Below, piece after piece: positions 7,375 to 57,805 of a stretch of DNA of 64,000 bases. The notes beneath the pieces are model-generated. The model saw only the letters and a program-made list of their open reading frames with translations. It searched no databases and was not told the origin of the DNA. The stretch covers positions 23,190 to 87,189 of the forward strand of contig PBLA01000003.1 in assembly GCA_002722245.1 (NCBI GenBank), in the 5' to 3' direction. Every line of letters starts with the position of its first letter. Position 1 is the first letter of the stretch. Source of the DNA: Flavobacteriales bacterium (GTDB lineage Bacteria; Bacteroidota; Bacteroidia; Flavobacteriales_C; GCA-002722245). The translations under genes and the position numbers were made by a program.

Positions 7375-10122
7375 TTATTTTACTACTAATTCCTTGACAG
7401 TCGTTTTGTTCATAACAACGGAGTAAATACCCGCCTTTAAATCTGAAATGTCGAGTTTGTTAATGTTACGTTCATTCACTATTCGTTGTCCAATATGATT
7501 ATATACTTGGAGTTGAGTAAGCGTTTGTGAAAAATGAATTGTTGTAATTGATGGATTAGGATAAAAACTTATCGTTTCATTAAGCTTTTCTTCTAATGAA
7601 ACAAGTGTGCTATTATGTTCAAAGTAGGCAGATGTTCCTGTTTCCGGACTTAATTCTTTTCCTTCACAAATCATATGACTTCCTTCTCCGATATACATCG
7701 TAATTAATGAATCCAAATCATCGGTGTTTTTGTACTTTCTAACAATCCCAAATCTTCCTGTAAATTGTATTGATTCACTTGGCATGTTAAAAGACGATGA
7801 TGCATTATCGTGTGAAATGATAAAATCAACAATTGATCTTCCATGAACATGTGAAGTGACTTTTGCTCCAACAATTTGATGATTTGTGTAGAGGTTTTCA
7901 ATGGATTGGATGGATGTCGCCACTTTTGATGGCTCAAATGCTAAAATAAACGGACGATTCCATGCTTCTCCATATTGGCGAATAATCATGACCTGAGCAG
8001 AATCATTTTGAGAAGGATCGCTTTGCTCAGCTTTATATTCGCTTTCTGTTTCCAAAATAGGAGGTGCAATACAACTGGTGTATTCTCGATGAATTCCTCC
8101 TGGTATCTGCACATGCATAGCCGCACCAATTTTATCTACATCAAACTTAGCCTTTATAGGTGAATCGGTAGAATCACTTGTGTTCAGTGCGCGAAAATAT
8201 TGCCATCCGGGGAAATCAATGTGTGCTGTATCGGTAGTTGTTCTGGCTTCCACTCTAGTGATATTTGATGAAAATCTGGTTTGATCAGAACTTAAAACGC
8301 CAGGGGTTATTTCTTCATTATTTGAAGTAAGCGTGACACGCTCACCGTAATTATGGTATAAATAATCATGGTAATTATTGCTGTCTTTTGATTGAGACCG
8401 AAAGATATCGAGATAATATCCTGTTTCAGGCCCTGTTCGAATAATGGTAAACGTTCGTTGTTGTAGTGCATTATTAATTTCATCATCTAATTCAACGGTA
8501 ACAAATGAAAAATTAGTTGAAACTGGAGCAAATGGTCCGTCAGAATTGGTTTGATCCATATTTACATCAGGCTCAATGGCTAAAATTTGTGCCGTATTTT
8601 GATACAATGCATTATCCCACTTCCAAGATTTTCCATCATGGACACCTTTGGAATTACCATTTACAATAACGGTATTCTTATTTGCATAAATTCGATGATA
8701 ATTCCGGTAAACTTCAGAGCTTCTGGTGGAGGAGGCCTTCGGATCTCCACTTCCTGCGCCCATTACCATGCCGCTTCCATAGAGCTCCATTTCAATTCCT
8801 GTGAGGTGAGAATGAACATAATGTGCACCACCTATATATCCCATGAGTCCAAATGTTTCAATATCCGGAGTTTCATAGTTTCGTAATACCCCAACTCCTG
8901 CATGTGGAAACTTAGCACTACGATGGTATTCAACCGTTTCGAAATTGTTTTCTAAATCAATATTGTCTCCAAAAAACAACATACATGGATTGTCCCATTC
9001 TAATCCTTCATTTTCAATAATTGGTTCAAATTTTTGCTCATTGTTATACACGCCTTGAATTCGCTCCATTGCTAAATTTTTATAAGTATTTAACCCATTA
9101 CTGTGTGCGATCTCAAATACACGTAAATAGAGGTTTTCAAAGTGGGTATGCTTTGTTCTCCTCGAATCTCCATATCGAACCATTGCCTCGTAATTCGGAT
9201 ACTTCAAATTTTCATACAAAAAAGCACCTTTTAATACTTTTCTACTGACATTAATCAAATTAAGAGAGGGATCATAGCGACTCGCAATATGAAGCATATG
9301 CAAGGTTACTTCATGGGTTTCTTTTCCATAACTAGTGGATTCTGGCCATAAAAAATCATGATCTTTAATGGTTTGTAACATGAGGTGTAAACCATCCTGA
9401 TTGGGTGTCCCGTTCATAAATTTATCAAAGTACTCATTTCGCACACTATCCTCTTCAATAACCAAGAGATTAAATAAGGCACCACTTGCCTCAAGCATAG
9501 GATGATTGGATCCTGTATTTCCTCTATTAAATACTTCATCAGCGAGTTTAATGAATGAGGCCTGTGCTTTGTCCTGATTGAATAGTTCCCTTTGTGCTGT
9601 TTTTAAATTGTATATGGTCGTTCCAGAATCAATTAAAAAGGGTTGAATAAAGTCGTATGTCATACCAACTTTTGGATATAAATCTCTACTTTCAATCCAA
9701 TGACCTGTTTTAGAAAAGTATAAATTCCCTGTTTCCAGTGAAATTTGCAAGGTGTAGTGAGATAGTATATCTGCTGCAAACTGGGCGTATTTATCCTCCT
9801 GATCTAAAAAATATAAGAACCCTGCCTGAACAGCATCAAACAATGCTTTACTGTGATCATTTCGCGTGTTTTCATCTTTTGATAAATCCGGAAGCGTAAG
9901 TAAATAAGTAGTAGGATCAACAATATGAGCATCCACCAATTCATCAATTGATTCATGAAGATCGTTGTATAACTTCGCACACCATTTTTGATTGGTATCT
10001 GCATTTATTTTATCCAAAACCGTTTGTCGTTCAGATGGAGAAGTCCAAATATGGGGGTGTGTTAATGATTGACCTTTACTTATCAAACTACACAATATCA
10101 CAAAATATAAAAGGAATTTCAT
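7375..10122 (-). CDS. Putative polysaccharide lyase (heparinase II/III- or alginate-lyase-like alpha/alpha toroid) with T9SS type-A CTD
   Basis: Likely start at the internal Met MKFLLYFVILCSLISKGQS (signal peptide); the track ORF begins at 10170. N-terminal HPHIWTSPSERQ... resembles lyase N-domains. C-terminal FYPNPS…AGIYSVVMNKTTVKELVVK is a T9SS CTD. The lyase family call is tentative. Confidence 0.5.
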   Translation of the reverse strand: MKFLLYFVILCSLISKGQSLTHPHIWTSPSERQTVLDKINADTNQKWCAKLYNDLHESIDELVDAHIVDPTTYLLTLPDLSKDENTRNDHSKALFDAVQAGFLYFLDQEDKYAQFAADILSHYTLQISLETGNLYFSKTGHWIESRDLYPKVGMTYDFIQPFLIDSGTTIYNLKTAQRELFNQDKAQASFIKLADEVFNRGNTGSNHPMLEASGALFNLLVIEEDSVRNEYFDKFMNGTPNQDGLHLMLQTIKDHDFLWPESTSYGKETHEVTLHMLHIASRYDPSLNLINVSRKVLKGAFLYENLKYPNYEAMVRYGDSRRTKHTHFENLYLRVFEIAHSNGLNTYKNLAMERIQGVYNNEQKFEPIIENEGLEWDNPCMLFFGDNIDLENNFETVEYHRSAKFPHAGVGVLRNYETPDIETFGLMGYIGGAHYVHSHLTGIEMELYGSGMVMGAGSGDPKASSTRSSEVYRNYHRIYANKNTVIVNGNSKGVHDGKSWKWDNALYQNTAQILAIEPDVNMDQTNSDGPFAPVSTNFSFVTVELDDEINNALQQRTFTIIRTGPETGYYLDIFRSQSKDSNNYHDYLYHNYGERVTLTSNNEEITPGVLSSDQTRFSSNITRVEARTTTDTAHIDFPGWQYFRALNTSDSTDSPIKAKFDVDKIGAAMHVQIPGGIHREYTSCIAPPILETESEYKAEQSDPSQNDSAQVMIIRQYGEAWNRPFILAFEPSKVATSIQSIENLYTNHQIVGAKVTSHVHGRSIVDFIISHDNASSSFNMPSESIQFTGRFGIVRKYKNTDDLDSLITMYIGEGSHMICEGKELSPETGTSAYFEHNSTLVSLEEKLNETISFYPNPSITTIHFSQTLTQLQVYNHIGQRIVNERNINKLDISDLKAGIYSVVMNKTTVKELVVK

Positions 10123-10277
10123 GTTCTGAAAAAGGTTTTGGCTAATCCTGTTATCTCCAAAATCGTTCAAAAAACTATTTTGACAAGGGACCTTAATCCC
10201 TTTTAATAATCAGAATCAATATAATGTTTTTTCTACGCGATTGAGGAACTTTTGATTCAAAAGGATGTGGAAGAAAT

Positions 10278-11564
10278 TTATTTTACCATCAAGGGCATTG
10301 AACAGGTTTGATTCATGACCAAAAAATAATTGCCTGGCGTAAGTTGACCTACATCTAATTGTTGTACATTTTCTTTAATCATTAAACGTTGACCATGATT
10401 ATTAAAAATTTCAACCAAATCAAATTCTGTAGTGAAACGAATAATTCCAATGGTAGGATTTGGATAGAAAACATGCTCTGAAAGACTAATTAATGAAGTA
10501 TTTGTGGCTACGTCTTCCACAGTAATTAGTATTTGATCTTCTGTTATTATCACGCCATCTTTCTTACCTCGCACAAGTACAGTATAAATTCCTGCTTCTT
10601 GGGGTGTCCATGGTGCATAAAATAATGAATCACTATTCACTCCAATATTTCTAACCTGAAGTAGTTCTTCTGACAAATCTTCTTTTTTCGTTGAAAATTC
10701 TACTGTTGTTAGGTAATCAAAACTTCCGTCAACGAGCGCTTTCAAACTTTGTTTTTTTCCAGCATTTATGGTGGCGTTATTTGATGGAATCGTGAATGAT
10801 ATCGCCGGTTTTTTCATCCCATAGGCATAGGTTCTCACATAGTCAATTGCCCAAGTAATGGGTTTAGTAGTCTGTTCGTTCCAATTGCCAGGCCATGTTT
10901 GATTGGAAACTTCCATGGTTAATTTCATATACTGTTCTACATCCGAAACTCCTCCCGCAGATGTTCGCCATGTTTCAATATCATCAATATAAAAAATATA
11001 TTCTTCTGGCGTCCACATCATTCCGAATTTATGGTAATTACCATCATACAATCCCCAATCGGTCATTGATTTGCTCGCTTTTTGATGCTCTGCGCCATAA
11101 CCATCCCAATGCAAAGCGTGTTGAATTTTTCCATTCCACCCATTGATTGATTCAAAAATATCCAGTTCGGTTCCATCATTTCCTTGACTTCCTACTTTAT
11201 TGCCATAAGGCATCATCCAAAACGCGGCCCAACCTCCTTTAATTTGAGGGACTTTACACCTTACTTCAAAATATCCGTATTTCTGATTATATCGATTATG
11301 CGTCCTTACTGCACCTGCATATACAGTGCCATTAATTTCAGAAACTTTTAACTTTAAATTCCCCTGACCATCCACCCAGGCATTATCATCATGCCAATAA
11401 CTTTTCCCTTGGCGAAACCAATTTGGACAATGATCCCATTTCGTGTTATCCAGTGTTACGCCGTTGAACTCATCATTCCAGATCATGATTAATGTATCCG
11501 CAACTTGTGCATTTAAAGAAGCCATCATTCCCAAAAAAAGGGTGAAAAATACGCGTTGTTTCAT
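10278..11564 (-). CDS. Glycoside hydrolase family 16 (laminarinase-type beta-glucanase) with T9SS type-A CTD
   Basis: Signal peptide present. GH16 catalytic motif E-L-D-I-F-E (GTELDIFE) in laminarinase ExDxxE form. C-terminal VFYPNPTIGIIRF…GNYFLVMNQTCSMPLMVK is a T9SS CTD. Confidence 0.85.
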   Translation of the reverse strand: MKQRVFFTLFLGMMASLNAQVADTLIMIWNDEFNGVTLDNTKWDHCPNWFRQGKSYWHDDNAWVDGQGNLKLKVSEINGTVYAGAVRTHNRYNQKYGYFEVRCKVPQIKGGWAAFWMMPYGNKVGSQGNDGTELDIFESINGWNGKIQHALHWDGYGAEHQKASKSMTDWGLYDGNYHKFGMMWTPEEYIFYIDDIETWRTSAGGVSDVEQYMKLTMEVSNQTWPGNWNEQTTKPITWAIDYVRTYAYGMKKPAISFTIPSNNATINAGKKQSLKALVDGSFDYLTTVEFSTKKEDLSEELLQVRNIGVNSDSLFYAPWTPQEAGIYTVLVRGKKDGVIITEDQILITVEDVATNTSLISLSEHVFYPNPTIGIIRFTTEFDLVEIFNNHGQRLMIKENVQQLDVGQLTPGNYFLVMNQTCSMPLMVK

Positions 11565-11717
11565 AAGGTTTTTTCTTGTGAACTAGGGTAAGATGAAATC
11601 AGTCAATTTAGGCGCTACACAAGATAGTGAATTTTTAAAATCCATCCTTGATTTATCCTCATGAAAGAGGCTTCCTATTGTTAGGGGAGTCTTCCAAATA
11701 ATCTCTAATTTAGTCCT

Positions 11718-13334
11718 ATGAAAAATCTGTTTTTCTTTCTTTTCGCTGTTTTTTTCCTTCTCGCTTGCACAGAAAAAAAACAAACCTCTCCATCCGAATC
11801 ACACGTCAATAAAAAGTCTCCAAATATTCTGTTCATCATGACCGATGATCACTCACGACATGCAATTAGTGCATACGGTAGTAAACTCATTAAAACTCCA
11901 AATATTGACGAAATCGCGAAATTCGGTGTTACGTTTACCAACTGTGCAGTGACGAACTCTATTTGTGGACCGAGTAGAGCTGTAGCCTTAACAGGAAAAT
12001 ACAGTCATATCAATGGATTTAAAGACAATCGTTCATCCTTTGATGGGAATCAGCAAACATTTCCTAAACTCTTACAAAAAGCAGGTTATCACACCATGAT
12101 GATTGGAAAATGGCATCTACATTCACCACCACAAGGATTTGATTATTGGAATATTCTAATTGGACAAGGTCAATATTACAAACCGATTATGATTGAAAAT
12201 GGAGATACATCAGAATTGGACGGATATGTCACCGATGTTGTCACGGACATTTCATTAAAGGAATTAAAAAAACGTGATCAAAAAAAACCTTTTTGTTTGA
12301 TGTATCATCAAAAAGCACCACACAGAAACTGGATGCCTAACGTGAAACATTTGAATCTGTATAAAGATGACACCCTACCTATTCCAGACAATTTTTTTGA
12401 TGACTATACTAATCGATCAAAAGCGGCTTTAGAACAGGATTTAAAAGTGAAAGATATGTATATGTCGTTTGATATGAAACTTCATCCTGATTCCTTTTTA
12501 AATGGGAGAGATTCTTTTGTTGATTACTCCGGAACGAAACATCAATACAAAAAAGAAACAGGAACAGGAGGCAGCGAAACGTGGGATCCTGTTTTTAATT
12601 GGAAACATTCCTACGATCGCCTTTCCGCTGAACAAAAGAAAGAATGGGACAAACATTATCAACCTATTTCAGAAGAGTTTTTCACGTCTAGTTATTCCGA
12701 TAAAGAATTAGCCGTGTGGAAATACCAGCGCTACATTAAAGATTATCTGCGATGCATTGTCTCTGTTGATGAAAATATCGGAAGGATGATTGCCTATTTG
12801 AAAAGTACGGGTGAATGGGAAAACACATTGGTGATATACACATCCGATCAAGGATTCTTCTTGGGTGAGCATGGATGGTATGATAAACGTTTCATGTATG
12901 AAGAATCGCTTATCACTCCATTCCTTATGAAAATTCCAAATTCCAATTCATCCTCTACAAATTCCGATTTGGTTATGAATCTTGATTTTGCGCCAACCAT
13001 CCTAGATTATGCGGGTATTGAAATTCCATATGATATGCAAGGAGCTTCACTAAAATCCTCTGTGGAAGGAAATCCCCTTTCTCGACAAGGACAATATTAT
13101 CATTATTATGAATTTCCGCATGGATGGCATAAAGTGAAAAAACACTACGGAGTGAGAACAAAAAATTTTAAACTTATTCACTATTACTCGGACATTGATG
13201 AGTGGGAAATGTTCGACTTGAAAAATGACCCACATGAAATGAATAATCTTTACGGTAAGTTAGCATATGCGGAGAGGCAAGAAGAATTGCATCATCTTTT
13301 AGATTCTTTAAGAGCACATTACAAAGATCAATAA
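11718..13334 (+). CDS. Formylglycine-dependent sulfatase (arylsulfatase / N-acetylglucosamine-6-sulfatase-like), lipoprotein
   Basis: Lipoprotein signal MKNLFFFLFAVFFLLAC. Sulfatase signature NILFIMTDDHS … CAVTNSICGPSRAVALTGKY (the C-x-P-x-R formylglycine motif). Confidence 0.9.
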   Translation: MKNLFFFLFAVFFLLACTEKKQTSPSESHVNKKSPNILFIMTDDHSRHAISAYGSKLIKTPNIDEIAKFGVTFTNCAVTNSICGPSRAVALTGKYSHINGFKDNRSSFDGNQQTFPKLLQKAGYHTMMIGKWHLHSPPQGFDYWNILIGQGQYYKPIMIENGDTSELDGYVTDVVTDISLKELKKRDQKKPFCLMYHQKAPHRNWMPNVKHLNLYKDDTLPIPDNFFDDYTNRSKAALEQDLKVKDMYMSFDMKLHPDSFLNGRDSFVDYSGTKHQYKKETGTGGSETWDPVFNWKHSYDRLSAEQKKEWDKHYQPISEEFFTSSYSDKELAVWKYQRYIKDYLRCIVSVDENIGRMIAYLKSTGEWENTLVIYTSDQGFFLGEHGWYDKRFMYEESLITPFLMKIPNSNSSSTNSDLVMNLDFAPTILDYAGIEIPYDMQGASLKSSVEGNPLSRQGQYYHYYEFPHGWHKVKKHYGVRTKNFKLIHYYSDIDEWEMFDLKNDPHEMNNLYGKLAYAERQEELHHLLDSLRAHYKDQ

Positions 13335-13404
13335 ACGATGCTTTGGGCATTGTTTCTACACAAAATGTTTTTCAATTAAATAGTGCCAATCAAGCGAAAC
13401 AATT

Positions 13405-14583
13405 TTGCACTATTTGAATACAAGTAGATTGGTGAAAACTTGTTTCCAATATGGTTCATTCCTTCTTTCATATCTGTTTTTATTTGGATTAAATCTCACA
13501 ATAAAAGCACAATATTCTGTTGCAACCTTTACTGGAACAGGTGATGGATTAAGTTGGATGGACCCTCTGAACTGGGACACTAAAAAGATCCCAAACCCTA
13601 AAAAACAAAGTGTCATAATACCTGCTAACCATTCCGTTTTTTATAATGGTTCCATGAGTTTGGATTTTAGAGACTCTACAAAATTTAAAGTCTTTGGAAA
13701 TGTTGATTTAGGAAATGCACATCTTCATATGAAAGAAAATAGTTTCTTTCTACTTTCACAACATGCAAAATTTATAGGTTATGAAATAAAATTAGGACAA
13801 AATGCACAAGGCAAAATCGAAAACAATACAATTTTTAAGGTAGAGGAAATTGAAACTCGTGACAATGCATCTCTTACCATAAATGCACAATGCGTTACCG
13901 TTACTCGTGAATTGAAAAATATTGAAAATGGATCAATCAATGGAATGGGATGCTTAAATTTTACAGGAATTAATTTCATTAATTCCGGAAAAGGGGGTGT
14001 TTTCAACTGTTTCTCGTCCAATTTTGAGGATTGTAATTTTTTAAAGGTAATTCGCCCAACACTTTCCCATTTCGAAAGTAGAGTGGTCAACAATGCTGTT
14101 CTTCTTCATTGGGTTTCTGATAAAGAACCTATTGGTGGTTATTATGAAATTCTCACCCGATCAAACAACGAAGAATTCGAATCACATAAAATGATTGAAG
14201 GAAAAGGCAATTACGAATATAAAGAGGGCTTCAAGCTTAATTTTAAAGGCGAAATAGCACTCCAACTTCACTATATTGACCCCTATGGAATAACTTCAAC
14301 CTTAATAGACACTTCTATTTCAAATCATTATTCCGAACAAGAAAAAAAACTATCCATTTATCCTAATCCATCCAAGAATGCTATTTCGATTATGAATTTG
14401 AAATTAGATGAAGACTACTTACTAAATATATATTCCCTTGACGGAATCTTGCTTTATAATACCTCTATAAATCTCCAAAAAAACACCCTATCAATTGCAC
14501 AGTTTAAACCAGGAAACTATTTTGTAGAAGTTGTTAATTCAGAGGGAGTTAAAACTGTTCTTCGATTTGTTAAATCAAATTAA
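13405..14583 (+). CDS. Hypothetical secreted protein with T9SS type-A CTD
   Basis: N-terminal hydrophobic signal. C-terminal LSIYPNPSKNAISI…GNYFVEVVNSEGVKTVLRFVKSN is a T9SS CTD. No catalytic motif recognised. Confidence 0.6.
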   Translation: MHYLNTSRLVKTCFQYGSFLLSYLFLFGLNLTIKAQYSVATFTGTGDGLSWMDPLNWDTKKIPNPKKQSVIIPANHSVFYNGSMSLDFRDSTKFKVFGNVDLGNAHLHMKENSFFLLSQHAKFIGYEIKLGQNAQGKIENNTIFKVEEIETRDNASLTINAQCVTVTRELKNIENGSINGMGCLNFTGINFINSGKGGVFNCFSSNFEDCNFLKVIRPTLSHFESRVVNNAVLLHWVSDKEPIGGYYEILTRSNNEEFESHKMIEGKGNYEYKEGFKLNFKGEIALQLHYIDPYGITSTLIDTSISNHYSEQEKKLSIYPNPSKNAISIMNLKLDEDYLLNIYSLDGILLYNTSINLQKNTLSIAQFKPGNYFVEVVNSEGVKTVLRFVKSN

Positions 14584-47287: not shown

Positions 47288-47362
47288 ACTTACAAAAGTA
47301 ACATTTTCATTAAGCTAATTTTGAACTCCCTTATACCGCTATTTAAATTAAATTGCACATTT

Positions 47363-48796
47363 TTAATGTAAAGACAAATTAATCTGTTTGATTAACCATT
47401 TTTTATCGGCCAGTTGTTTTTCGGATTCAATTTCCTTAGATAACTCACTTACTTTTACTGTTAGTTCCTCCCTTGAATAATGTACTCTTTTATCAAAAAT
47501 TCTAGATAACTTAAGAATATATTTTAAGAATGAAGTGTAGGAATTTTTTTGAATCTCAGCCAAAGAATCCTCTCTTTTTAAATAGGACTTAAAATTTTTC
47601 ACCGAACTTTCGACCGATAAGGTATCTTTCGTTTCCAAATAAATTTTTATTTGCAAAGATCTATAGGCCAATTGGTAGAAAACATCCTTAAAATTAACAA
47701 AAGTTAAGTTTCTTTGAGCCCCTTTATAATCTCCTTGAGCAAATAATATATTTGCCTGATTATAATTGTATATCATAGATTTGTCTTCACTAGGAATATA
47801 TTGAATATATGAATCAAGAAATTTCTCAGCCCATATGAATTCTTTTGCTCTGATGGCAACTTCAATAATATTCTTATAAGACCGATCATGAACGAAAGAA
47901 TTTACCACCAAAAAATCATTATCTACCTGAAATTTCATGATATTAAATAATTCTTGAATATAATCTTCACCATTGTTAACCTTCTTAATACAATGATTAA
48001 TCGAATGTTGGATGAAATTCGTTATTTCCGATCGCGGAGAAACATCTATATTTTCCTTAATTGAATTTAAAAAAACATTAAACTCTTCTCGCGTAAACTC
48101 TTCTGTAAATAAATCTATCAATCTTAAATAAAGATGAAGAGATGGATACTTGCTAAACTCATTTGGCCTATTTTCAATAAATGCTCTTATCTCATCAAAA
48201 AATGTCTTTTTATATTTAGCACTTATTAATCGCTCTCTGACACTCATTTCAATATAAATTTGTAATTTATTGAAGACATAAAAAGCATCTAATGAGTAAG
48301 ACTTGTCTTGAAGTACTTCTGAATATGGTAAGCTAGTATCCTTATTGTACCCTTTATCTATTTCTACATCTGCCAAAAAATCAAATAATAGTTCTTCATT
48401 TGATTTAATCTTGGATTCATCAATTTGTTTCTTTGTTTCCTTAAAGTGCTTCTGAATTGATTTTCCAGAAATTCTCATATTCAATTCTGACACTTTAATA
48501 TATTGTTTCAAATGAGGTCTGTTTTCTGTGTGAACAGTGATTAGATATTGCTCGGCCAACTTATATAAAGCTGACATATCATTATTTAAATTTTTAGATT
48601 TCGTTACTAATTCCAACTTTTCCTTTTTAATCTTTGAAAAATTAGGATGAACCTTTTCCATTACCCTTACAATATCAACAAAGACTTGATTTTTATTATA
48701 ATAAGGGGACGCTATGAAATCAACAAACTTGGACATCTCCTTTGAGGAAAATGTTTCCAAAAGAACACATAATTTACTTCCAGCAATATCTGACAT
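47363..48796 (-). CDS. Hypothetical cytoplasmic alpha-helical (TPR-like) protein, paralog 1 of a divergent pair
   Basis: 477 aa with no signal peptide. Clear paralogy to 49199..50653 (e.g. DRSYKNIIEVAIRAKEFIWAEKFL…MIYNYNQANILFAQGDY…FYQLAYRSLQIKIY versus DRTIKNIIEVAIRAEKYQWAENFL…MIYNYNFANINFGMNN…FYQLSYRILLIKIY). No family recognised. Confidence 0.7.
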   Translation of the reverse strand: MSDIAGSKLCVLLETFSSKEMSKFVDFIASPYYNKNQVFVDIVRVMEKVHPNFSKIKKEKLELVTKSKNLNNDMSALYKLAEQYLITVHTENRPHLKQYIKVSELNMRISGKSIQKHFKETKKQIDESKIKSNEELLFDFLADVEIDKGYNKDTSLPYSEVLQDKSYSLDAFYVFNKLQIYIEMSVRERLISAKYKKTFFDEIRAFIENRPNEFSKYPSLHLYLRLIDLFTEEFTREEFNVFLNSIKENIDVSPRSEITNFIQHSINHCIKKVNNGEDYIQELFNIMKFQVDNDFLVVNSFVHDRSYKNIIEVAIRAKEFIWAEKFLDSYIQYIPSEDKSMIYNYNQANILFAQGDYKGAQRNLTFVNFKDVFYQLAYRSLQIKIYLETKDTLSVESSVKNFKSYLKREDSLAEIQKNSYTSFLKYILKLSRIFDKRVHYSREELTVKVSELSKEIESEKQLADKKWLIKQINLSLH

Positions 48797-48933
48797 CTAC
48801 AATAGCTAAGTATATCAAAATTAAGATTTTAGTTTTAAACCCTGTATTTCTTAAAAAGAAATATATTTAATCAAAGTAACTAATAAATGAGGTTCTTATT
48901 CTCCGTTATAAGATTACAAATTTAACAAGTAAT

Positions 48934-49130
48934 TTACTGCACAAAAACCCATCCGTAAGCAGTTAAATTTCCAGACTGGAATTCTATAAGATATACCCCC
49001 TTCTCGAATTCAGAAAGGTTCAAAACCTGAGTTGGAGGTTATATAATAATTATGCCAATTTATTTTTTCCAAGATTATAATAATTTCAGGGTCTCCAATA
49101 AATAACATTTGTGTATCTCCTATCACAATC
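48934..49130 (-). pseudogene. Orphan remnant of a T9SS type-A C-terminal sorting domain (3' gene fragment, stop-interrupted)
   Basis: Reverse-strand translation gives PPTQVLNLSEFEKGVYLIEFQSGNLTAYGWVFVQ*, preceded in-frame by a TAA. About 80-85% nucleotide identity to the real 3' end of the FG-GAP cargo gene (54468-54570) and to the fragment at 56772-56880. Confidence 0.55.
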
Positions 49131-49198
49131 ATTTCTTACAAAAAGTATATCAAAATCGAGTAATAAAAGATTTTTTTACATTTTGCTAATTTTATAAG

Positions 49199-50653
49199 AT
49201 GATTGAAAAAGAAATATCCAAAAGTAAATTAGGTGTTTTGCTGAAGGCTTTATCTAAAAAGGAATATAACTCTTTTATTAAATACCTAGATTCCCCATTA
49301 TTTAACAAAAAAAAAGAATTTCACGAAGCAGCTAAGTTTTTATTCAAATTTCACCCCTCGTTTGAAAATAAGGACTTATCGAAAGAATTATTAAAAAAAC
49401 ATCTGAATAAGAGTACAAAAAAACTAAATAATATAAACTCATTAATGAATGGACTCTTGAGGCATGGAGAGGAGTTTCTTGTTCATAATCATGTATCAGA
49501 GTCACAAGGACTAAAGGATTTAATCTTACTATCAGAATTTAATAACAGATCGATTAAAAAAGGTTTTGAAAATCATGTTAAAAGCTCTGATCATAGAATT
49601 GAAAAAATATCTGTTCAATCATTTGATCAAATTCTCAATTCATTCCTTATTGAGCACGAAATCGATGTAGCTTTTTCAAAAGATCAGAGTCTTCCATTTG
49701 ATCAAGCTATCATTTCTAAAACTACACAATTAGATGTATTCTTTTTTTATTGCAAACTAAAAACCTATTGCGAAATAATTTCGCGTTCTCAATTTTTAAA
49801 GGTCAAATATCCTACTGATAATTTTGAAAAAACATTAGAATGGCTAAAAAACTTTCCCGAACTAATAAAAAATCCTTCTATAAAAATATACTTTGGTCTA
49901 GTTCAATTACTGAAAAACTTCGAAAATGATGAGATCTATTCGAAATATATAATCACCCTAAAAGAAGAATACAATAACTTCAATAAAGATGAATGCATAA
50001 ACCTTTTTCAAACCGTATCAAATCATTGTATTAGAAGAATAAACAACGGTTCAAGTCATTACTTAAAAGAACTGTTTAATATTTATGAATTTCAAGCAGA
50101 AAAAGACCTGCTTGTAAAGGAAGGTTTTCTACACGACAGAACAATCAAAAACATTATAGAAGTTGCTATCCGAGCTGAAAAATATCAGTGGGCTGAAAAT
50201 TTTCTTGTGCAACATATTGATTTTGTTGACAAAGATCAAAAAGAGATGATTTACAACTATAATTTTGCAAACATAAATTTTGGTATGAACAATTTAAAAA
50301 CGGCAAAAAAACATTTAGTGTTTGTTAATATAAAAGACCCCTTTTACCAACTATCTTACAGAATCTTACTAATTAAGATATATTATTCAATTAATGACTT
50401 TGAAGCTCTATCTAGTACTATTTCAAATTTCAAAGCATTTTTTAATAGAGAAAAAAACATCTCAGAAATTCAAAAAGCTATTTTCTCAAACTTACTTTTT
50501 TTCATACACAAGTTGGTTTTGTTAAAGGAGAAAAAAAATCATCTTGAAACCAAAAAATTCTCAATTAAAAAAGAAGAGCTTAAGGCCCAAATTAATAGTG
50601 AAAACAAGATAGCCGATAGAGGGTGGTTACTAAATGAATTTGAAAAAGTATAA
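49199..50653 (+). CDS. Hypothetical cytoplasmic alpha-helical (TPR-like) protein, paralog 2 of a divergent pair
   Basis: 484 aa with no signal peptide. N-terminal SKLGVLLKALSKKEYNSFIKYLDSPLFNKKKEF parallels SKLCVLLETFSSKEMSKFVDFIASPYYNKNQVF of paralog 1. The C-terminal helical repeats are also conserved between the two. Confidence 0.7.
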   Translation: MIEKEISKSKLGVLLKALSKKEYNSFIKYLDSPLFNKKKEFHEAAKFLFKFHPSFENKDLSKELLKKHLNKSTKKLNNINSLMNGLLRHGEEFLVHNHVSESQGLKDLILLSEFNNRSIKKGFENHVKSSDHRIEKISVQSFDQILNSFLIEHEIDVAFSKDQSLPFDQAIISKTTQLDVFFFYCKLKTYCEIISRSQFLKVKYPTDNFEKTLEWLKNFPELIKNPSIKIYFGLVQLLKNFENDEIYSKYIITLKEEYNNFNKDECINLFQTVSNHCIRRINNGSSHYLKELFNIYEFQAEKDLLVKEGFLHDRTIKNIIEVAIRAEKYQWAENFLVQHIDFVDKDQKEMIYNYNFANINFGMNNLKTAKKHLVFVNIKDPFYQLSYRILLIKIYYSINDFEALSSTISNFKAFFNREKNISEIQKAIFSNLLFFIHKLVLLKEKKNHLETKKFSIKKEELKAQINSENKIADRGWLLNEFEKV

Positions 50654-50795
50654 TTTAAGGTAATATTTTTTTTGATAATACTCCTTTCGAAGAAGTATTT
50701 AATTCAAAACTTAAGCTGAAATTGTCATTGAAAATGGTCTTTGAATTGAATTAGGAGAATTCCATTATTACTAAAAAAATGTATTTATTTACATA

Positions 50796-50830
50796 AAAAA
50801 GCCGAGGTAAAATTGGCCTCGGCTTTTATT
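50796..50830. terminator. Bidirectional rho-independent terminator between convergent genes
   Basis: AAAAAAGCCGAGGtaaaattgGCCTCGGCTTTTATT. Confidence 0.65.
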
Positions 50831-50844
50831 AAGTTTTTCAAATT

Positions 50845-53800
50845 TTATTTTTTAATAAAGGAAATTGTCTCAACTTTAGCATCTCCAGAAACAACTATTG
50901 AATAATAACCTGATACTAGGCCAGAAACATCAATTTTTGATTTCCCTATTACCATATCCATCTCTTGAGATAAAACTATTTGTCCATGCGCATTAAACAC
51001 CTGAAGCTTCATTCCCTCTGATTGCTCATTATCCGAAAATAAAGACACATTTAACTCGTTTTCAGCAGGATTTGGATAGACTTCTAACATACTGCTCTCA
51101 ATAGACTTAACAGCCGTTCCTTCTTCATATACTGGATCTAAAATTTCAGCATATGAAATGACTTCTGTGTCAAACGATCTCGGAGTAAACATAGGATTAT
51201 TCTCATCGTCATCACACGTCAAGTTAGTATTTAGTTGCATTTGCTGATTAAACCCGTTTAATTGCGCAGCACACGAGGCAGTTGAATGATACTGGAAATT
51301 TTGAGTGATGTTTACCGTATTAAACGTAAAAGTATTTACTCCAAAGTTATTAGCCATGTTCATGGTTCCGCTAATACAAAATACATCAATTGCTGTGTTT
51401 GAATTACTCCAGAAGGTATTTAAACCTGGCGAAATTGCGGTTCCAAAATCAATGTTTTGTGAATTATTTACATATAAACCAGCATTTGAATAGTTATAAA
51501 GGAAGTTATTTCTGACAGAACCTCCTGAATTTCTGAATAAATATATTGGATTGCTAGAATCGTATATACAGTTTGAATGAATGTTACACCCATTTCCATC
51601 TCTAATAAACATTCCTACTCCGCTTCTAGCTGTTCTTCCGTTAAATTTGTTCATATCAATCTTATTGCACATAACATTCAAATCACTTCTTCTAGAAAAA
51701 ATCCCATAAAGCTCATTGTTTAACAAATCATTACTTGTAATTTGACCTGTACTATTAATTGTACTGATTCCTGTATTAAATCCAGAAATTTCATTTTCTT
51801 TTACTTTAAAGTTATTACTATTCCATAATGAAACAGCAGGAATTCGAACTGTATTACCTCTGTTAAGTATGCCGTTTGATATGGTATTATTTAACATCCA
51901 AACTTGGTTTCCACCACGAATTGAAATCTGAATATCAAAATTAAATGCTCCATTATTGGATAAACCGTTACTTACAGAAATAGTATTTGCTTCAATGTTT
52001 AAAGGATAAACTGATCGTCTACCAAGATTAGCCTCTATGGATGTTGAATTTCCAGAAAAATTATTTTGAGAAATTGTAGCTCCAGAAGCATTCATTTTAA
52101 TTCCGTGAAATTGTATTGATGTATTTGAGGAATATGATACAAAGTCGTTTTGACTAATACCTCCTGAGATCTCTGAACGAGAAATGTTAACTCCACTTGG
52201 TTCATTGTTGTTGATTGATACTTGACGTCCACAATCCTCATATAAAGGAAAGTCTGTATCTACCTTAAACTCATTCCCCGTAATACTTCTTGCAAAGTCT
52301 GTTCTGGAATCGACATTTACACCATACAAACAATTCTCGAATAAGTTGTTTGTTACCGAACCTTCTGTACTTTGAAAATCTAACGCCATAGTTGCATTGA
52401 TAAACGTACTGGAATTTACATCAACAGTATTTACGTTGTTAAAAACCAAACCATGCCAGGTATTAACCAAGTCGCATGGTCTAAAAACAGAGTTGTTTGC
52501 TTTTAACGTTGCACCGTTGTTAAATACAATTGCGGCACATTTTCCAAACACAACATCAACGTTTGTAATGTCTAATTCAGCAGCATCCACTGTAACAGTT
52601 ATATTGTCTCCGATCAAAATTTTACCCTCCCAAACTGTACCACTGGATATTATTTGATCCGCCAAAATCTGCTGTAATTCATTAATATTTGCTGATTGCA
52701 ACAAGCAGCAATTATTTGATTCTTCAACCTCAATAGTAGCAATATCCTGACATCCATTAATATATGTTACTACAGATTGATACGAGCCCGTCTCATCAAT
52801 TTCTAACGTATTACCACCAATTTCAATGAGTTGTCCATCTAAAAACCACTCATATGTTTGCACTAAATGGTTTATATTAACGTCAAGCCCTGAAATTATG
52901 GCATGAGCTTCTACCGCTAATTCAGCTGTTTCTCCGGGACAAATTGACTCCTCTGTACTCGTTAATATTGTATTCAATGCAGATTCACTAGTAAAATTAG
53001 GAAGACCAAAACCTCGTGTTGCAGTATTTGTATTTTGAAAAACATTTGGATTATAATTTGGATTAGCGCTACCCGTATTAGTTATTCTACCAACTGTTTG
53101 AGAGGCAGCGGCTACCCATCCCGCATTACTAACATGATAAATATTTCCATCCACACCAGTTTGAAGTCCACCGCCAAGATCGTTCCAACCGGATCCTTGA
53201 CCTGACCACCATATTCGGCTAATAGAATTGTTATTGTTTAGGTCAATTTGGTACAACTCACTCGGGCCATAACACCCATAGTATAAATATTGTCCATTTA
53301 TAGAGTATTCCAAATCAACTACGGCTGAAGTTGCTCCAGGGAAAGTTGTTGCTCCAATTGTATTACCAACTCCATTAAATGTACCTGTTTGCGTATTAAA
53401 TGTCTCCATCATAATAATGCTTGATCTAGGAGCTGCTGTGAAAACCGACCATGCTACTTCTACATTTATATTATCATTTAGTCTTGTTGCAGAATATGTA
53501 GGGTTTAAAACCGCATTATTAGGAACGTTTCCTATGTTAAACTGATTAGAATATTGTATTCCGTTTGAACTAATTTTATATACTGCAAAGGTTGATGCAT
53601 TATCAACAACTTTCGTAATTAACCAGTATTCAAAAGGGTTTGTAAGATTTGGAATGGCTATAATACCTTCTTGTACATTAACTCCAGATAAAGGATTATT
53701 TAATGTTGGTAAAGCCCCATTAAATTGAGAAAAAACACCTGTTGCAGCATCATAAACGTGAACTAATAAATCTCTACCGTTACCATTATTTGTTGGATCC

Positions 53801-54195
53801 GAAAAAATATAATATTGATCACTACAATTAATAACAGGAACAACTGTAACTGCTGTTGACGAGGAAGGATCTGCTCCTAAAGGTTCAATATTTGGCGTAT
53901 TAAGATTTGGATCAACCCTTTGATGGTTTGAGTTATACAAATTAATCCCATCTGTGTAAAATAATAAGTCACCAGTATTTGGGTCGGATACAACTGTAAT
54001 ACCTTCAGTACTATTTAAAGCACCAGCATTCGGACCAGCTCCTACTAATGCTCCGATATTACCAGTATTATCAATTGAAAATTCAGAGGGGTCAGCACCG
54101 CTTCCGAATATCCAGTTCGTTCGCTCTAATTGGGCTTTACCTGTTAACCAGGAGAGTAATATTAAAGCTGCGATAAAAGTGTATTGTTTTTTCAT
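50845..54195 (-). CDS. Secreted 1116-aa protein with N-terminal beta-propeller-like region, right-handed parallel beta-helix (PbH1-like) repeats and T9SS type-A CTD
   Basis: Signal peptide MKKQYTFIAALILLSWLTGKAQ. Asn/Gly-rich beta-helix-like repeats (…NNTISNGILNRGNTVRI…NNFKVKENEISGFNTGIS…). C-terminal VYPNPAENELNVS…GYYSIVVSGDAKVETISFIKK. Confidence 0.75.
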   Translation of the reverse strand: MKKQYTFIAALILLSWLTGKAQLERTNWIFGSGADPSEFSIDNTGNIGALVGAGPNAGALNSTEGITVVSDPNTGDLLFYTDGINLYNSNHQRVDPNLNTPNIEPLGADPSSSTAVTVVPVINCSDQYYIFSDPTNNGNGRDLLVHVYDAATGVFSQFNGALPTLNNPLSGVNVQEGIIAIPNLTNPFEYWLITKVVDNASTFAVYKISSNGIQYSNQFNIGNVPNNAVLNPTYSATRLNDNINVEVAWSVFTAAPRSSIIMMETFNTQTGTFNGVGNTIGATTFPGATSAVVDLEYSINGQYLYYGCYGPSELYQIDLNNNNSISRIWWSGQGSGWNDLGGGLQTGVDGNIYHVSNAGWVAAASQTVGRITNTGSANPNYNPNVFQNTNTATRGFGLPNFTSESALNTILTSTEESICPGETAELAVEAHAIISGLDVNINHLVQTYEWFLDGQLIEIGGNTLEIDETGSYQSVVTYINGCQDIATIEVEESNNCCLLQSANINELQQILADQIISSGTVWEGKILIGDNITVTVDAAELDITNVDVVFGKCAAIVFNNGATLKANNSVFRPCDLVNTWHGLVFNNVNTVDVNSSTFINATMALDFQSTEGSVTNNLFENCLYGVNVDSRTDFARSITGNEFKVDTDFPLYEDCGRQVSINNNEPSGVNISRSEISGGISQNDFVSYSSNTSIQFHGIKMNASGATISQNNFSGNSTSIEANLGRRSVYPLNIEANTISVSNGLSNNGAFNFDIQISIRGGNQVWMLNNTISNGILNRGNTVRIPAVSLWNSNNFKVKENEISGFNTGISTINSTGQITSNDLLNNELYGIFSRRSDLNVMCNKIDMNKFNGRTARSGVGMFIRDGNGCNIHSNCIYDSSNPIYLFRNSGGSVRNNFLYNYSNAGLYVNNSQNIDFGTAISPGLNTFWSNSNTAIDVFCISGTMNMANNFGVNTFTFNTVNITQNFQYHSTASCAAQLNGFNQQMQLNTNLTCDDDENNPMFTPRSFDTEVISYAEILDPVYEEGTAVKSIESSMLEVYPNPAENELNVSLFSDNEQSEGMKLQVFNAHGQIVLSQEMDMVIGKSKIDVSGLVSGYYSIVVSGDAKVETISFIKK

Positions 54196-54467
54196 AACCT
54201 TCTTTTATTTTAAATTTTAATTGTAAAACAGGACTCAAAAGTAGATAGGTAGAGCCTTAAAAGTTTCGGTATTTTTTTTACATAATTTTAGAAAACCGAA
54301 CAAAAAAAATACGTAAATACCTGTAAAACAAGTACTTATCTGTGTTATAAGTTTAAAAAAAGAATCAAATTGAATGTGATAAAAAACCTAGTATTTAAGG
54401 TTTAACACTTTGAATTAATAAAAAGGGATTAGGAATTATTAGAAATAACTTTATTAACCTATAGTCT

Positions 54468-56738
54468 TTAATTAACAAAAACCCTTTCGTAAGTGATTAA
54501 GTTTCCGGACTGAAATTCTATGACATACACTCCTTTCTCAAAACTAGAAAGATTCAACACTTCATGTTGAGCAGGAGTAAGCAACTGATTAATTACTCTT
54601 CCCGACAAGTCCATAATCCTAATTTTATCAAGTTGCAACTTAGAATCTATATTAAATACCCCTGAGTTAGGATTAGGATATACCTTTAATCCTTTTTCAA
54701 GCAAATTTATATTGTGATCTTCTTTATTTAAAACAACAATAGGGTCTCCATAAACAACATTTGGTAATATCGTATCACCTTCATAGCTTACAATAATTAG
54801 GTCCGTTAATCTAATATCAAAATCTTTTACAATCTCTCCTAAGTTATCTGGAATAACGATTATACCTGTGGCTAAGTATCCCTGACCAGTTCTATTAATT
54901 TGGTCTGTTCTTGACATCCCAATATCAATTCCGTCGGTTAGTGGAAAACCATCAGCAATCATATCAACATTTTTTGTACCTAACCAACTGCCATTAAAAT
55001 TGGATGAGTTATCACTTCCAAAAACTTCTTCAAGGTCATGCTGCCATTTCATACTCAAACCATATACATTTTCAGCAGGTGTCACCGAGTCCCCTAAATA
55101 AATTTGGTAAACAATAGAGTCTGAACTTGACACTGTATCTGTTTTTGATGAAATGTAAAGAGGTGGACCAAAAGGATTTGTAGGTACGTTTTTATCCACT
55201 TTAAAAGAAACTTGCGAATAGTTTTGACGAACAGCTAATACATCATCAAAATCTATTTTTCCATCTCCATCTGTATCCGCATGTTTCAAATCAACTTCAT
55301 AATGTTTATTCCCCCAATCATCGCAGGTTTGATCTGTCCATGAGATAAGAGGTAATATTCTTCTTATACCATCAGAAACTCCAATACCTGCACCAATATT
55401 AATATAATCAGAGCTATTAACTTTACCATCATTATTTGCATCGCCAGGCCAAACACAATCATCCTCTATACATTTTCTGGGTTTCAATGTTATAAAATGA
55501 ATTGCTCCTCCTAAATATGCAGAGTCAGACCTCCATGATTCTCCAACAGCTACTTCAGGATAGCCGTCTGAATTTATATCTCCTACATGATATATCAGAC
55601 TGCCAAACTGTTGCTCTGGAAGATAATCCAATCCAGAAACCGTATTTCTATTTATTAACTCATACGCGGTAACATCACCTGATGAATCTAAAAAAAACAC
55701 ATAGGCCTCTCCATAATTATCAGGTGAAAATCCTTTATATGCAGTAACTAAAAGCTCATTTAGCCCATCAAAATTCAAATCAGGAAGAGATCTTAAAACT
55801 CTTCCAAAAGCAGAGCCGCTAACACTTAACCCACCAACAACAGGGTGAGAATTATCAATTCGTTTTGATGATTTCACCGAACCATCTGTATTTAATAAAA
55901 CAATCCAAAATCGATCTCCTTTTGTACCAGCGACTATGTCAGTCATTCCGTTCCCATCAATATCGCCTATATTTGCTAATCCATCACCAAATCCAGCATT
56001 TGGATATTTAATACCGGGAAAGTCCTCAAATGTTGGTAAAATCTTTTTGTAACCCTTTACTGTACCATTGGAATTTAAGTACAAAATATAGATTACTCCC
56101 ATATCAGCACCCACATCATGTGCTTCAAAAGCAGAGACAAAAACATCGGTATTTCCGTCATTGTCTAAGTCTCCTGCGGCAGAAACTTCCATTCCAAATT
56201 TATCGCCTAATGTAATATCTAAAATTGAGTTGTTTTGAGATATCTTAACATCATCCTTAACCGTTCCATCAGTATTCAAAAACAAGATATAAACCGCACC
56301 AGAATATAATCCAAAACCATTATCGTCCTGAGGCGCACCTACGACGACATCCATATTCCCATCTCCATCTAAATCACCTAATGTGTCAACTGATATTCCA
56401 AATGCAGCCTGCCTATGGATCAAACCTGAAAAACCACCTTTTCCTTCCCCAATAAATTGATAGGATTTAAATGTTCCATCAGAATTCATGAACGCAACAA
56501 CTAACTCACCCCGAGTAGTATGACCTAAGCCTGGTCCGGCAATAACCAAATCATTTATCCCATCCTTATCTAAATCACCTATTACTGTTGCTCCATGCAA
56601 ATAGGCGCTGTCCTCTTTAGGAATAAGTAACTCTTCGTTATTCAATTGAAAAGTTTTTAATAATTCAAAACTAAGTTGCTGACTGAATACAAAATTGGAA
56701 AACAGTATTAAAACTAATGATATATGTAATTTGTTCAT
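54468..56738 (-). CDS. Secreted FG-GAP (integrin-alpha-like beta-propeller) repeat protein with dockerin/EF-hand-like Ca-binding loops and T9SS type-A CTD
   Basis: Repeated GDLDKDGINDLVIAG / GDLDGDGNMDVVVGA / GDLDNDGNTDVFVSA / GDIDGNGMTDIVAG / GDINSDGYPEVAVGE motifs; DANNDGKVNSSD and DTDGDGKIDFDD loops. C-terminal KVYPNPNSGVFNI…GVYVIEFQSGNLITYERVFVN. Confidence 0.75.
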   Translation of the reverse strand: MNKLHISLVLILFSNFVFSQQLSFELLKTFQLNNEELLIPKEDSAYLHGATVIGDLDKDGINDLVIAGPGLGHTTRGELVVAFMNSDGTFKSYQFIGEGKGGFSGLIHRQAAFGISVDTLGDLDGDGNMDVVVGAPQDDNGFGLYSGAVYILFLNTDGTVKDDVKISQNNSILDITLGDKFGMEVSAAGDLDNDGNTDVFVSAFEAHDVGADMGVIYILYLNSNGTVKGYKKILPTFEDFPGIKYPNAGFGDGLANIGDIDGNGMTDIVAGTKGDRFWIVLLNTDGSVKSSKRIDNSHPVVGGLSVSGSAFGRVLRSLPDLNFDGLNELLVTAYKGFSPDNYGEAYVFFLDSSGDVTAYELINRNTVSGLDYLPEQQFGSLIYHVGDINSDGYPEVAVGESWRSDSAYLGGAIHFITLKPRKCIEDDCVWPGDANNDGKVNSSDYINIGAGIGVSDGIRRILPLISWTDQTCDDWGNKHYEVDLKHADTDGDGKIDFDDVLAVRQNYSQVSFKVDKNVPTNPFGPPLYISSKTDTVSSSDSIVYQIYLGDSVTPAENVYGLSMKWQHDLEEVFGSDNSSNFNGSWLGTKNVDMIADGFPLTDGIDIGMSRTDQINRTGQGYLATGIIVIPDNLGEIVKDFDIRLTDLIIVSYEGDTILPNVVYGDPIVVLNKEDHNINLLEKGLKVYPNPNSGVFNIDSKLQLDKIRIMDLSGRVINQLLTPAQHEVLNLSSFEKGVYVIEFQSGNLITYERVFVN

Positions 56739-56771
56739 GTGCTAAAAAGACCTAATAAATAAAATTATCTA

Positions 56772-56990
56772 TTATTTAACAAAAACCCTTTCGTAAGCAG
56801 TTAAATTCCCGGACTGGAATTCTTAATAATATACCCCTTTCTCAAAACTTTATAATTCAAATCCTGCCCAATTAGTAAAGTGGGTAAAACATGATTAAAA
56901 GAAAAACCAACATTATGTAATTCCTGTAATTAGTAACTGAATTTATTCAACATTTTTTATGCCTTATGAAAGAAACATTAATAAAAATTA
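56772..56990 (-). pseudogene. Orphan, degenerated remnant of a T9SS type-A CTD (3' gene fragment with in-frame stop)
   Basis: Reverse-strand translation gives …DLNYKVLRKGVYY*EFQSGNLTAYERVFVK*. The first ~100 nt are ~80-85% identical to 54477-54570 and 48941-49037. Further upstream, similarity to the CTD-coding region of the FG-GAP gene is decayed but recognisable. Confidence 0.55.
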
Positions 56991-56993
56991 TTC

Positions 56994-57030
56994 AAGAAAC
57001 AAAAAAGCCGGCAAGTTATGCTTACCGGCT
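56994..57030 (-). terminator. Rho-independent terminator of the sdh operon
   Basis: Minus-strand AGCCGGTAAGcataaCTTGCCGGCTTTTTTTGTTTCTTG, immediately 3' of the sdhB stop. Confidence 0.6.
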
Positions 57031-57049
57031 ACAACTTATTTAGTAAATA

Positions 57050-57805
57050 TTATTTATCCTTTGATAACACGGAAGCGCTCAAAAAGTCTCTATTCATTCG
57101 AGCTATATTGTCTAAAGAAATTCCTTTAGGACATTCCACCTCACACGCACCGGTATTGGTACAGTTACCGAAACCTTCTGTGTCCATTTGATCAACCATA
57201 TTCAATACTCTTCGATCTTTTTCTACCTGACCTTGAGGCAATAATGAAAATTGCGAAACCTTCGCGGAAACGAATAACATAGCAGATCCATTCTTACATG
57301 TAGCAACGCATGCTCCGCAACCTATACAAGTTGCTGCGTCAAAAGCCTTATCGGCATCTACTTTAGGGATTGGAATAGCATTAGCGTCTTGCGTATTTCC
57401 GGAAGTATTTACCGAAACATATCCTCCTGCTTGCTGAATTCTATCAAACGCACTTCTATCAACCACTAAATCTTTCACCACAGGAAATCCTGCCGATCGA
57501 AATGGCTCAATGGTAATGGTGTCGCCATCTTTAAACATTCGCATATGAAGTTGACACGTCGTTACTTTACGATCGGGTCCATGCGCCTCACCATTTATAT
57601 ACAATGAACACATTCCGCAAATTCCTTCTCTACAATCGTGGTCAAAGGCAACTGGCTCAATGTCATTGTTAATTAATTGTTCATTTAAGATATCCATCAT
57701 CTCTAAAAAAGAAGAATCAGGGCTTATATCTTTTACGTTATAAGTTTCAACTTTTCCTTTTGCTTTGGCATTTTGCTGACGCCAAACTTTTAAAGTTAAA
57801 TTCAT
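57050..57805 (-). CDS. sdhB: Succinate dehydrogenase / fumarate reductase iron-sulfur subunit
   Basis: [2Fe-2S] [10 protein letters not shown], [4Fe-4S] [11 protein letters not shown], [3Fe-4S] [12 protein letters not shown] cysteine clusters. Confidence 0.9.

Follow-up and report, generated by a model that had tools for sequence, protein, structure and literature searches.

The locus considered here is an accessory interval within a 64-kb stretch of DNA (the window, whose positions serve for all coordinates) from an uncultured marine Flavobacteriales bacterium. It separates murF-alr, a gene for a MurF–alanine racemase fusion, from the sdh operon, and it holds two kinds of intact genes: a pair of paralogs, par477 and par484, whose products resemble tetratricopeptide-repeat (TPR) proteins, and two genes for type IX secretion system (T9SS) cargo, named 756 and 1116 after the length of their products, both with a type-A C-terminal sorting domain (CTD). 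Two stubs of cargo genes, remA and ghostC, lie among them (Table 1). An earlier reading of this DNA from its letters alone (the original prediction) had set the paralogs back-to-back in an interval between two core loci, and its positions agree with our listing of open reading frames (ORFs) and their translations. Comparators with L-numbers are metagenome contigs or metagenome-assembled genomes (MAGs) from related lineages.

Table 1. Genes, stubs and hairpins of the interval and its conserved flanks, in window positions
Feature	Position	Strand	Description
murF-alr fusion, 828 residues	44801..47287	-	Pfam Mur_ligase_M, Ala_racemase_N, Ala_racemase_C; conserved flank
par477	47363..48796	-	all-alpha and TPR-like, probably cytoplasmic; member of a large family so far undescribed
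remA	48934..49147	-	decayed 3' remnant of a cargo gene from the 756 family
par484	49199..50653	+	paralog of par477, 37% identity
GC-rich hairpin with A and T runs on either side	50797..50827	both	terminator-like; between convergent par484 and gene 1116
gene 1116 (1116 residues)	50845..54195	-	T9SS type-A cargo, CTD above cutoff; without dockerin/cohesin-like module
gene 756 (756 residues)	54468..56738	-	T9SS type-A cargo; FG-GAP repeats, dockerin-/cohesin-like module, CTD
ghostC	56771..56965	-	collapsed cargo gene; 5' signal-peptide end fused to last CTD strands
hairpin of sdh operon	57006..57030	-	terminator-like; just 3' of sdhB
sdhB	57050..57805	-	conserved flank, followed by sdhA and sdhC; 97% identical to sdhB of L007

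Both cargo proteins carry the sorting domain at the C-terminus: gene 756 scores 47.3 bits with PF18962 (cutoff 27) and 38.7 bits with TIGR04183 (cutoff 23), gene 1116 scores 42 bits with Por_Secre_tail (cutoff 27) and 37.5 bits with TIGR04183 (cutoff 23). Their N-termini, MNKLHISLVLILFSNFVFSQ and MKKQYTFIAALILLSWLTGKAQ, are signal-peptide-like by eye. Pfam and NCBIfam find FG-GAP repeats in the 756-residue protein, so that the FG-GAP cargo that had been proposed has both its repeats and its sorting domain above threshold. For the proposed beta-helix cargo, gene 1116, the sorting domain holds, but the beta-helix is weakly supported by a NosD match that stays below threshold (E = 0.024); in a homolog of this protein the Pfam family Beta_helix falls just below cutoff (E = 1.6e–5). 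Gene 1116 is 32% identical, over ~680 aligned residues, to cargo of 1688 and 1695 residues that follows a par gene in L100 and L101. In these contigs (L100:1–8131, L101:1–7607), as in L083 and L102, the par protein is ~47% identical to par477, and the par start overlaps the stop of an upstream gene for an 881-residue GH63-like protein (MGH1-like_GH); L100 and L101 continue from par into the 1116-related cargo and have a 756-like gene nearby, while L083 and L102 end at par.

The par proteins belong to a very large undescribed family. As had been proposed, par477 and par484 are paralogs, 37% identical from end to end (E = 4e–105). A word-based search returned 23 relatives, and a profile search of 1.84 billion representatives returned 11,390 clusters (50% identity) at E ≤ 1e–3, of which 5,705 at E ≤ 1e–30. 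The family is ~475 residues long; among the 150 matches listed almost all measure 445–500 residues and align end to end. Every source calls these proteins 'hypothetical protein', and the family was seen here only in metagenome contigs and in MAGs of Bacteroidota, with at least three copies in one MAG. Neither par477, par484 nor the family members tested match a Pfam or NCBIfam family, distant members giving sub-threshold TPR matches only, and no sequence in the PDB matches the par profile. An AlphaFold2 model (mean confidence, pLDDT, 88.4) is wholly helical; its fold matches are generic TPR proteins, with scores in the range of many unrelated TPR proteins, and the N-terminus forms a conserved three-helix region that matches no family. 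No hydrophobic segment was detected in par477 or par484 (maximal Kyte–Doolittle KD19 values 0.66 and 1.48), so in the absence of a predicted membrane-spanning segment the proteins are probably cytoplasmic.

We collected 80 metagenome loci through the family alignment, together with earlier loci of par homologs, and counted 75 upstream neighbours, using a CTD hidden Markov model (HMM) built from proteins of these loci and, as control, 1210 ORFs of murF-alr loci. Directly upstream of par lies a gene with a C-terminal CTD in 46 of the 75 loci, against 54 of the 1210 control ORFs (4.5%) and a share of 6–13% at other positions around par; the check suggested with the original prediction, whether homologs of the paralogs lie beside CTD genes, is thereby answered in the affirmative. 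The link persists after dereplication of par at 50% (CTD neighbour in 30 of 39 clusters), and Pfam confirmed Por_Secre_tail in all nine par neighbours sampled. Nearly all of the CTD neighbours (42/46) are divergent from par, with a median gap of ~200 nt. Twelve of the 18 divergent neighbours without a CTD start with a signal peptide and are cut by a contig end, and therefore the real fraction must be higher. The window's near relatives are arranged otherwise: the pair is co-oriented, in the order cargo, par, murF-alr, with par 39–90 nt after the cargo. Most genomes examined have one par per cargo gene, which speaks against a module specific to the pair, as had been thought, and the back-to-back position of par477 and par484 is a secondary juxtaposition. 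Our literature search, on T9SS cargo pseudogenes and recombination and on T9SS together with cohesin or dockerin, turned up no mention of this pairing. In L084:6927–16507 a distant par homolog (27%) is divergent from a DUF7619 protein with a CTD by HMM, followed by a MORN-repeat protein and two more CTD cargo genes (cadherin-like/GEVED; Porph_assoc).

The neighbouring cargo, 436–2265 residues long, shares more than the sorting domain. A module of ~220 residues before the CTD, which in gene 756 covers residues 427–646 (~54801–55460), was found by HMM in 42 of the 75 upstream neighbours (26 of the 39 dereplicated clusters) and in two control ORFs, both of them genes of L007; the matches range from E 1e–60 to 1e–87 except for three, one weak and partial (L112) and two contig-cut (L127 and L149). 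It consists of calcium-binding, dockerin-like DxNxDGxV motifs followed by a beta domain. Among nine sampled partner cargo proteins, two reach the Pfam threshold for Cohesin (26.2 and 24.6 bits, cutoff 24.1) and one comes near that for Dockerin_1 (21.4 bits, cutoff 22.9), while their N-terminal parts vary (SprB repeats, PKD, DUF7948, Big_9). Gene 756 itself has no Pfam match to Cohesin or Dockerin and a weak EF-hand match alone.

The par proteins may act on the adjacent cargo gene. That the family is a dedicated cytoplasmic partner of type-A cargo with the dockerin/cohesin-like module, either a TPR-based regulator or an export-coupling factor, is a tentative view to which we give slightly less than even odds. 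As a working guess, the most likely function would be cargo-specific control of transcription from the shared divergent promoter region, which is favoured because of the divergent arrangement, the ~200-nt spacers and a conserved oriented element. This element, TCAYRNTACAA (TTGTAnYRTGA on the cargo strand), is present in 16 of the 37 divergent spacers, where the cargo start is 10–95 nt away (L113, L148, L135, L150, L107, L118, L110, L119, L114, L139, L123, L133, L143, L142, L149 and L171) against 2 of 183 control spacers; it was derived post hoc from the same spacers and is absent from the window island. Its role may be that of an operator or of an element close to the promoter.

It should be noted that the par proteins lack a recognisable DNA-binding domain and that their fold matches are generic, both of which weigh against a regulator. 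Cytoplasmic binding of the cargo before export is for this reason a serious rival, if a less likely one. In its specific form it makes par a chaperone or targeting factor for dockerin/cohesin-like cargo, comparable to the TPR chaperones of type III secretion, that acts before the passage through Sec by which T9SS cargo cross the inner membrane. An all-alpha TPR-like solenoid would suit such a role, as would the linkage to cargo with one particular ~220-residue module rather than to any CTD protein and the co-oriented pairs of the near relatives. We nevertheless find the chaperone unlikely, because the dominant divergent arrangement is typical of regulator–target pairs, because the oriented motif is conserved near the cargo start, and because we know of no dedicated cytoplasmic chaperone for T9SS cargo. 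The 'dedicated regulator or chaperone' of the original prediction stays a suggestion.

The second feature of the interval is a repeat at the 3' ends of cargo genes. The last ~105 nt of gene 756 (54468–54571) are its intact copy. When the last 135 nt were compared by BLAST with the whole window, two further copies appeared, at 56860–56772 (80%, E = 5e–17) and at 49034–48933 (76%, E = 1.4e–16), and the next best match has E = 0.15; three copies, as had been predicted, are exactly what the window holds. Both extra copies read on the minus strand and come just before the next gene of that strand, at distances of 33 nt and 137 nt, again as expected, and both are interrupted by in-frame stops or frameshifts. 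The copy at 56771–56875 translates as ...SFEKGVYY, a stop, EFQSGNLTAYERVFVK and two stops, that at 48934–49037 as ...LNLSEFEKGVYLIEFQSGNLTAYGWVFVQ and a stop, and the end of the gene 756 CTD as ...LNLSSFEKGVYVIEFQSGNLITYERVFVN and a stop; in every stub the last ~55 nt are the best preserved part. Significant homology to intact genes and a disrupted reading frame together mark both stubs as pseudogenes. A candidate fourth remnant 3' of gene 1116 (~50660–50730) was rejected, since 1–5 of 500 shuffles score as well, the CTD HMM gives E = 7 and the L103 ortholog has nothing CTD-like either. Likewise rejected was a ghost of the murF-alr 5' end 3' of par484, which is marginal (3/500 shuffles) and implies an inverted segmental duplication that is implausible given the 37% identity of the paralogs. 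Elsewhere in the window four more ORFs with a C-terminal CTD cluster at 5537–14583 (5537–7345 on the plus strand, 7375–10170 and 10278–11564 on the minus strand, 13405–14583 on the plus strand), none with the island DNA repeat or the dockerin/cohesin-like module.

The content of the interval differs among relatives, in line with its description as variable and accessory. MurF–alanine racemase fusions are common in Bacteroidota, with 596 confirmed relatives in species-representative genomes, the best 80 of which matched near full length over both halves. Synteny was compared in 80 murF-alr loci of representatives that do not include the window's own species, and in L007 alone does sdh adjoin murF-alr. 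This Flavobacteriales MAG, the closest genome representative (MurF-Alr 76% and SdhA 98% identical), has the order sdhCAB, X1 (368 residues), X2 (784 residues), murF-alr, where X1 and X2 are tandem 756-family genes and both par and 1116 are absent. L104 reads sdhCAB, an X1-like 3' fragment, a frameshifted ortholog of gene 756, one par and murF-alr; L097 has a 756-like 3' end, par and murF-alr, and L081 a 993-residue cargo gene, par and murF-alr. In L096, as in the window, par484 and par477 stand back-to-back; L103 shares par484 and the stub with the window, but in place of par477 two intact cargo genes (1003 and at least 648 residues) come next. In L104:6835–9135 the gene 756 ortholog is broken up into ORFs of 148, 250 and 344 residues and the X1-like gene upstream is a 767-nt 3' fragment; these broken genes are either real pseudogenes or assembly frameshifts.

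The stub beside sdhB, ghostC, retains both ends of a cargo gene. Its decayed upstream region and 5' end occupy ~56965–56842. The upstream region aligns with that of X1 in L007, and the 5' part (56906–56842) matches the 5' ends of intact cargo genes, where the signal peptide is encoded, at 84–88% identity (nt 63–126 in L081; 88%, E = 6e–14, for cargoB of L103). The 3' part, with the last CTD strands at 56875–56771, is 80–82% identical to CTD ends. The two are joined at TTGAAT...GTTTTGA, the stub has several in-frame stops, and ~19 nt at the junction (TTGAATTATAAAGTTTTGA) align both to the 5' site (...LNYKVL..., TTGAATTATAAGGTTTTGA in L103) and to the CTD site (...LNLSGFE..., TTGAATCTTTCCGGTTTTGA in L097). 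At the same position L007 has an intact short gene and L104 its 767-nt fragment. Most simply, the alignments would be read as one gene that lost its inner part between two direct repeats, both short and imperfect, and then decayed. The original prediction had this stub as a 3' cassette left by recombination between two CTD ends, which does not agree with the retained signal-peptide end and the join in microhomology.

The other stub, remA, is older and extends from the end of the pre-CTD domain through the last CTD strands to a stop codon at 48934–48936; ~118 nt of the CTD are missing, there is a frameshift and the upstream pre-CTD part lies in another frame. Orthologous stubs exist in L103 and L096, and remA is collinear with the 756-like 3' end that precedes par and murF-alr in L097 and L104 and also with the stub beside par484 in L103. 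At this site L096 has a longer, more complete and fully decayed CTD, which indicates that decay is lineage-specific. Together the two stubs bear out the idea of successive deletion or replacement of cargo bodies, which was largely right in that they are real remnants of deleted cargo; recombination between CTD ends, the mechanism proposed for it, does not fit ghostC.

Could the stubs be kept by selection, the cargo 3' end serving as promoter or regulatory element of the next gene? They end 33–137 nt upstream of that gene, the spacers between tandem cargo genes in L007 and L103 are 56–57 nt, so promoters likely overlap the upstream CTD end, and it is the last ~55 nt that are best preserved. However, when the window is compared with L103, remA and its upstream spacer agree at 76%, and gaps take up 54 of 299 columns (a single pair), while synonymous sites of par484 in the same pair are 82% identical; remA thus diverges at about the synonymous rate, has lineage-specific indels and, taken as one, gives no indication of selection. 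The L093 stub is likewise only ~70% identical while the adjoining par477 is 98.8% identical, and ghostC has a degenerate form of the TAnnTTTG-like box that precedes intact cargo genes (L081, L103). Our promoter scan covers sigma-70-type sites only and is uninformative for Bacteroidota. We regard maintenance by selection as decidedly unlikely and, from the divergence pattern, take remA and ghostC to be probable decaying pseudogenes rather than the 3' cassettes of the original prediction.

At remA the relatives part company with the window. Against L096, identity is 91% down to 49040 and 75% from 48855; against L103, homology stops at 48922, and against L093 at 48863. The breaks of three independent comparisons thus all fall inside 48855–49040, ~190 nt. 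On one side of them par484 is young: its synonymous divergence (dS) from the window is 0.18 in L096 and 0.20 in L103, its orthologs in these two are 95% identical to it, and L096 and L103 agree at 92% across par484, which points to recent shared ancestry. On the other side, the proportion of synonymous differences (pS) of the adjacent par477 against L096 is 0.86, that is, saturated, and the par477 DNA of the window, L096 and L081 differs by 20–25%. Gene 756 is 76–88% identical to its ortholog in L104, with dS of 0.44–0.95, whereas the flanking core genes are saturated. The gap in dS between par484 and par477, together with the clustered breaks, indicates that segments of the island were exchanged between lineages by homologous recombination, and we conclude that these alignments probably mark a zone of crossover formed by the CTD end together with its spacer. 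Homologous recombination at CTD ends, as originally suggested, accordingly accounts for remA and fails for ghostC. L093 is 98.8% identical to the window from 48863 downward, par477 included; beyond this point it has the ~70%-identical stub and then non-homologous upstream sequence, so structural variation exists even at about the species level. L093:1–345 (corresponding to window ~48863–49140) contains another gene end and a terminator hairpin, AGCCGATAAG...CTTATCGGCT, seen in no comparator sequence.

Such breaks might be artefacts, chimeric metagenome contigs joined at the CTD repeat. The contigs L096, L103 and L093 are short and were assembled from short reads, and L093 and L095 end no more than 345 nt upstream of par477. 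Yet the three contigs are independent, come from different assemblies and break within the same ~190 nt; stubs diverged to ~70–80% identity are too different for k-mer assemblers to merge, and the agreement of L096 with L103 across par484 is not what chimeras would give. We consider this explanation highly improbable. Insertion of the island by an integrative element, transposon or phage, with the stubs as target-site debris, is scarcely credible: the GC content of 27–28% across both par genes (47363–50653), against 33–40% in cargo genes and flanks, and the variable content would fit it, but the tRNA scan found none in 40000–64000, Pfam and NCBIfam found no integrase or transposase family in the four island proteins, as the original prediction had stated, the repeat search found no inverted or direct repeats at the flanks besides the CTD copies, so that neither integrase or transposase, tRNA or att-type target nor flanking repeats of an integrative element were found, and the cargo family is already at the site in L007, which has no par.

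We therefore read the interval, with a probability of roughly 0.7, as a hypervariable T9SS surface-protein locus that is remodelled by deletion and by homologous exchange between lineages. Its core would be an array of tandem 756-family cargo paralogs, each with a dockerin-/cohesin-like module between an N-terminal part that varies and a type-A CTD, accompanied by one or two par genes. The similar 3' ends of the cargo genes would form the preferred crossover zone and supply homology for both exchange and deletion. One gene, ghostC, would have lost its whole body between similar sites after the signal peptide and in the CTD. At remA the cargo body would have been lost in the common ancestor of three lineages, leaving the 3' end, which would now mark the junction between a recently exchanged segment (par484 and upstream remA) and the older side with par477 and murF-alr.

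Several observations weigh against this reading. The deletion at microhomology in ghostC implies that loss of cargo needs no homology between CTDs. All comparators are metagenome contigs or MAGs, that of L096 only 2.9 kb long, and a chimera at the repeat is conceivable, albeit unlikely because the CTD stubs of different lineages are ~70–80% identical. The par484/1116 block may have been gained as well as lost. In the window, cargo and par477 are co-oriented and par484 adjoins a dead stub, unlike the canonical pair with its divergent genes. Finally, five contigs from other marine samples (L086–L089 and L095) are 100% identical to the window over 2.4–21 kb, so the arrangement is stable in the sampled population; this suggests a widespread population of high clonality or else an origin of the window in one of those assemblies.

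The island by itself is a clear case of surface-protein turnover without mobile elements, useful but not surprising, a matter of ordinary genome plasticity. The main new result is the pairing of a very large undescribed TPR-like family with dockerin/cohesin-like T9SS cargo. We know of no cytoplasmic, cargo-specific factor of type IX secretion, and the par–cargo linkage therefore offers a candidate gene together with a concrete hypothesis. If the proposal is true, no cytoplasmic component specific to a cargo would have been linked to the T9SS before par, and the window locus would be a place where par–cargo modules swap between lineages.

Among known systems, the locus recalls hypervariable adhesin loci remodelled by recombination between paralogs, such as the domain exchanges of rgpA, kgp and hagA in Porphyromonas gingivalis. 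It shares with them tandem secreted paralogs, homologous segments for crossover, variable content and the lack of a dedicated recombinase. Unlike in those loci, the shared segment is here the CTD-coding 3' end with its spacer, one deletion went by microhomology, dead stubs remain, and an undescribed cytoplasmic family travels with the cargo. A one-to-one genomic pairing of T9SS cargo with an accessory gene is also known for the PorP/SprF-like partners of cargo with a type-B CTD (in Flavobacterium johnsoniae, SprF is paired with SprB), which are outer-membrane proteins encoded downstream. In contrast to these, par is all-alpha, has no hydrophobic segment, is mostly divergent and accompanies type-A cargo with a dockerin/cohesin-like module. 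From the RRNPP (Rap, NprR, PlcR) and MalT-type TPR or SUPR regulators par differs in having neither sequence similarity to them nor a recognisable helix-turn-helix; moreover, in contrast to RRNPP systems, its neighbour is a large cargo gene and not one for a small signalling peptide, and it belongs to Bacteroidota rather than Firmicutes. As for cellulosomes, the dockerin-like motifs followed by a beta domain, which reaches the Pfam Cohesin threshold in two of nine sampled proteins, resemble their cohesin–dockerin modules. Here, however, the partner cargo holds both modules in one polypeptide followed by a T9SS CTD, and its N-terminal parts are adhesin-like (FG-GAP, SprB, PKD, Big_9) with no glycoside hydrolases.

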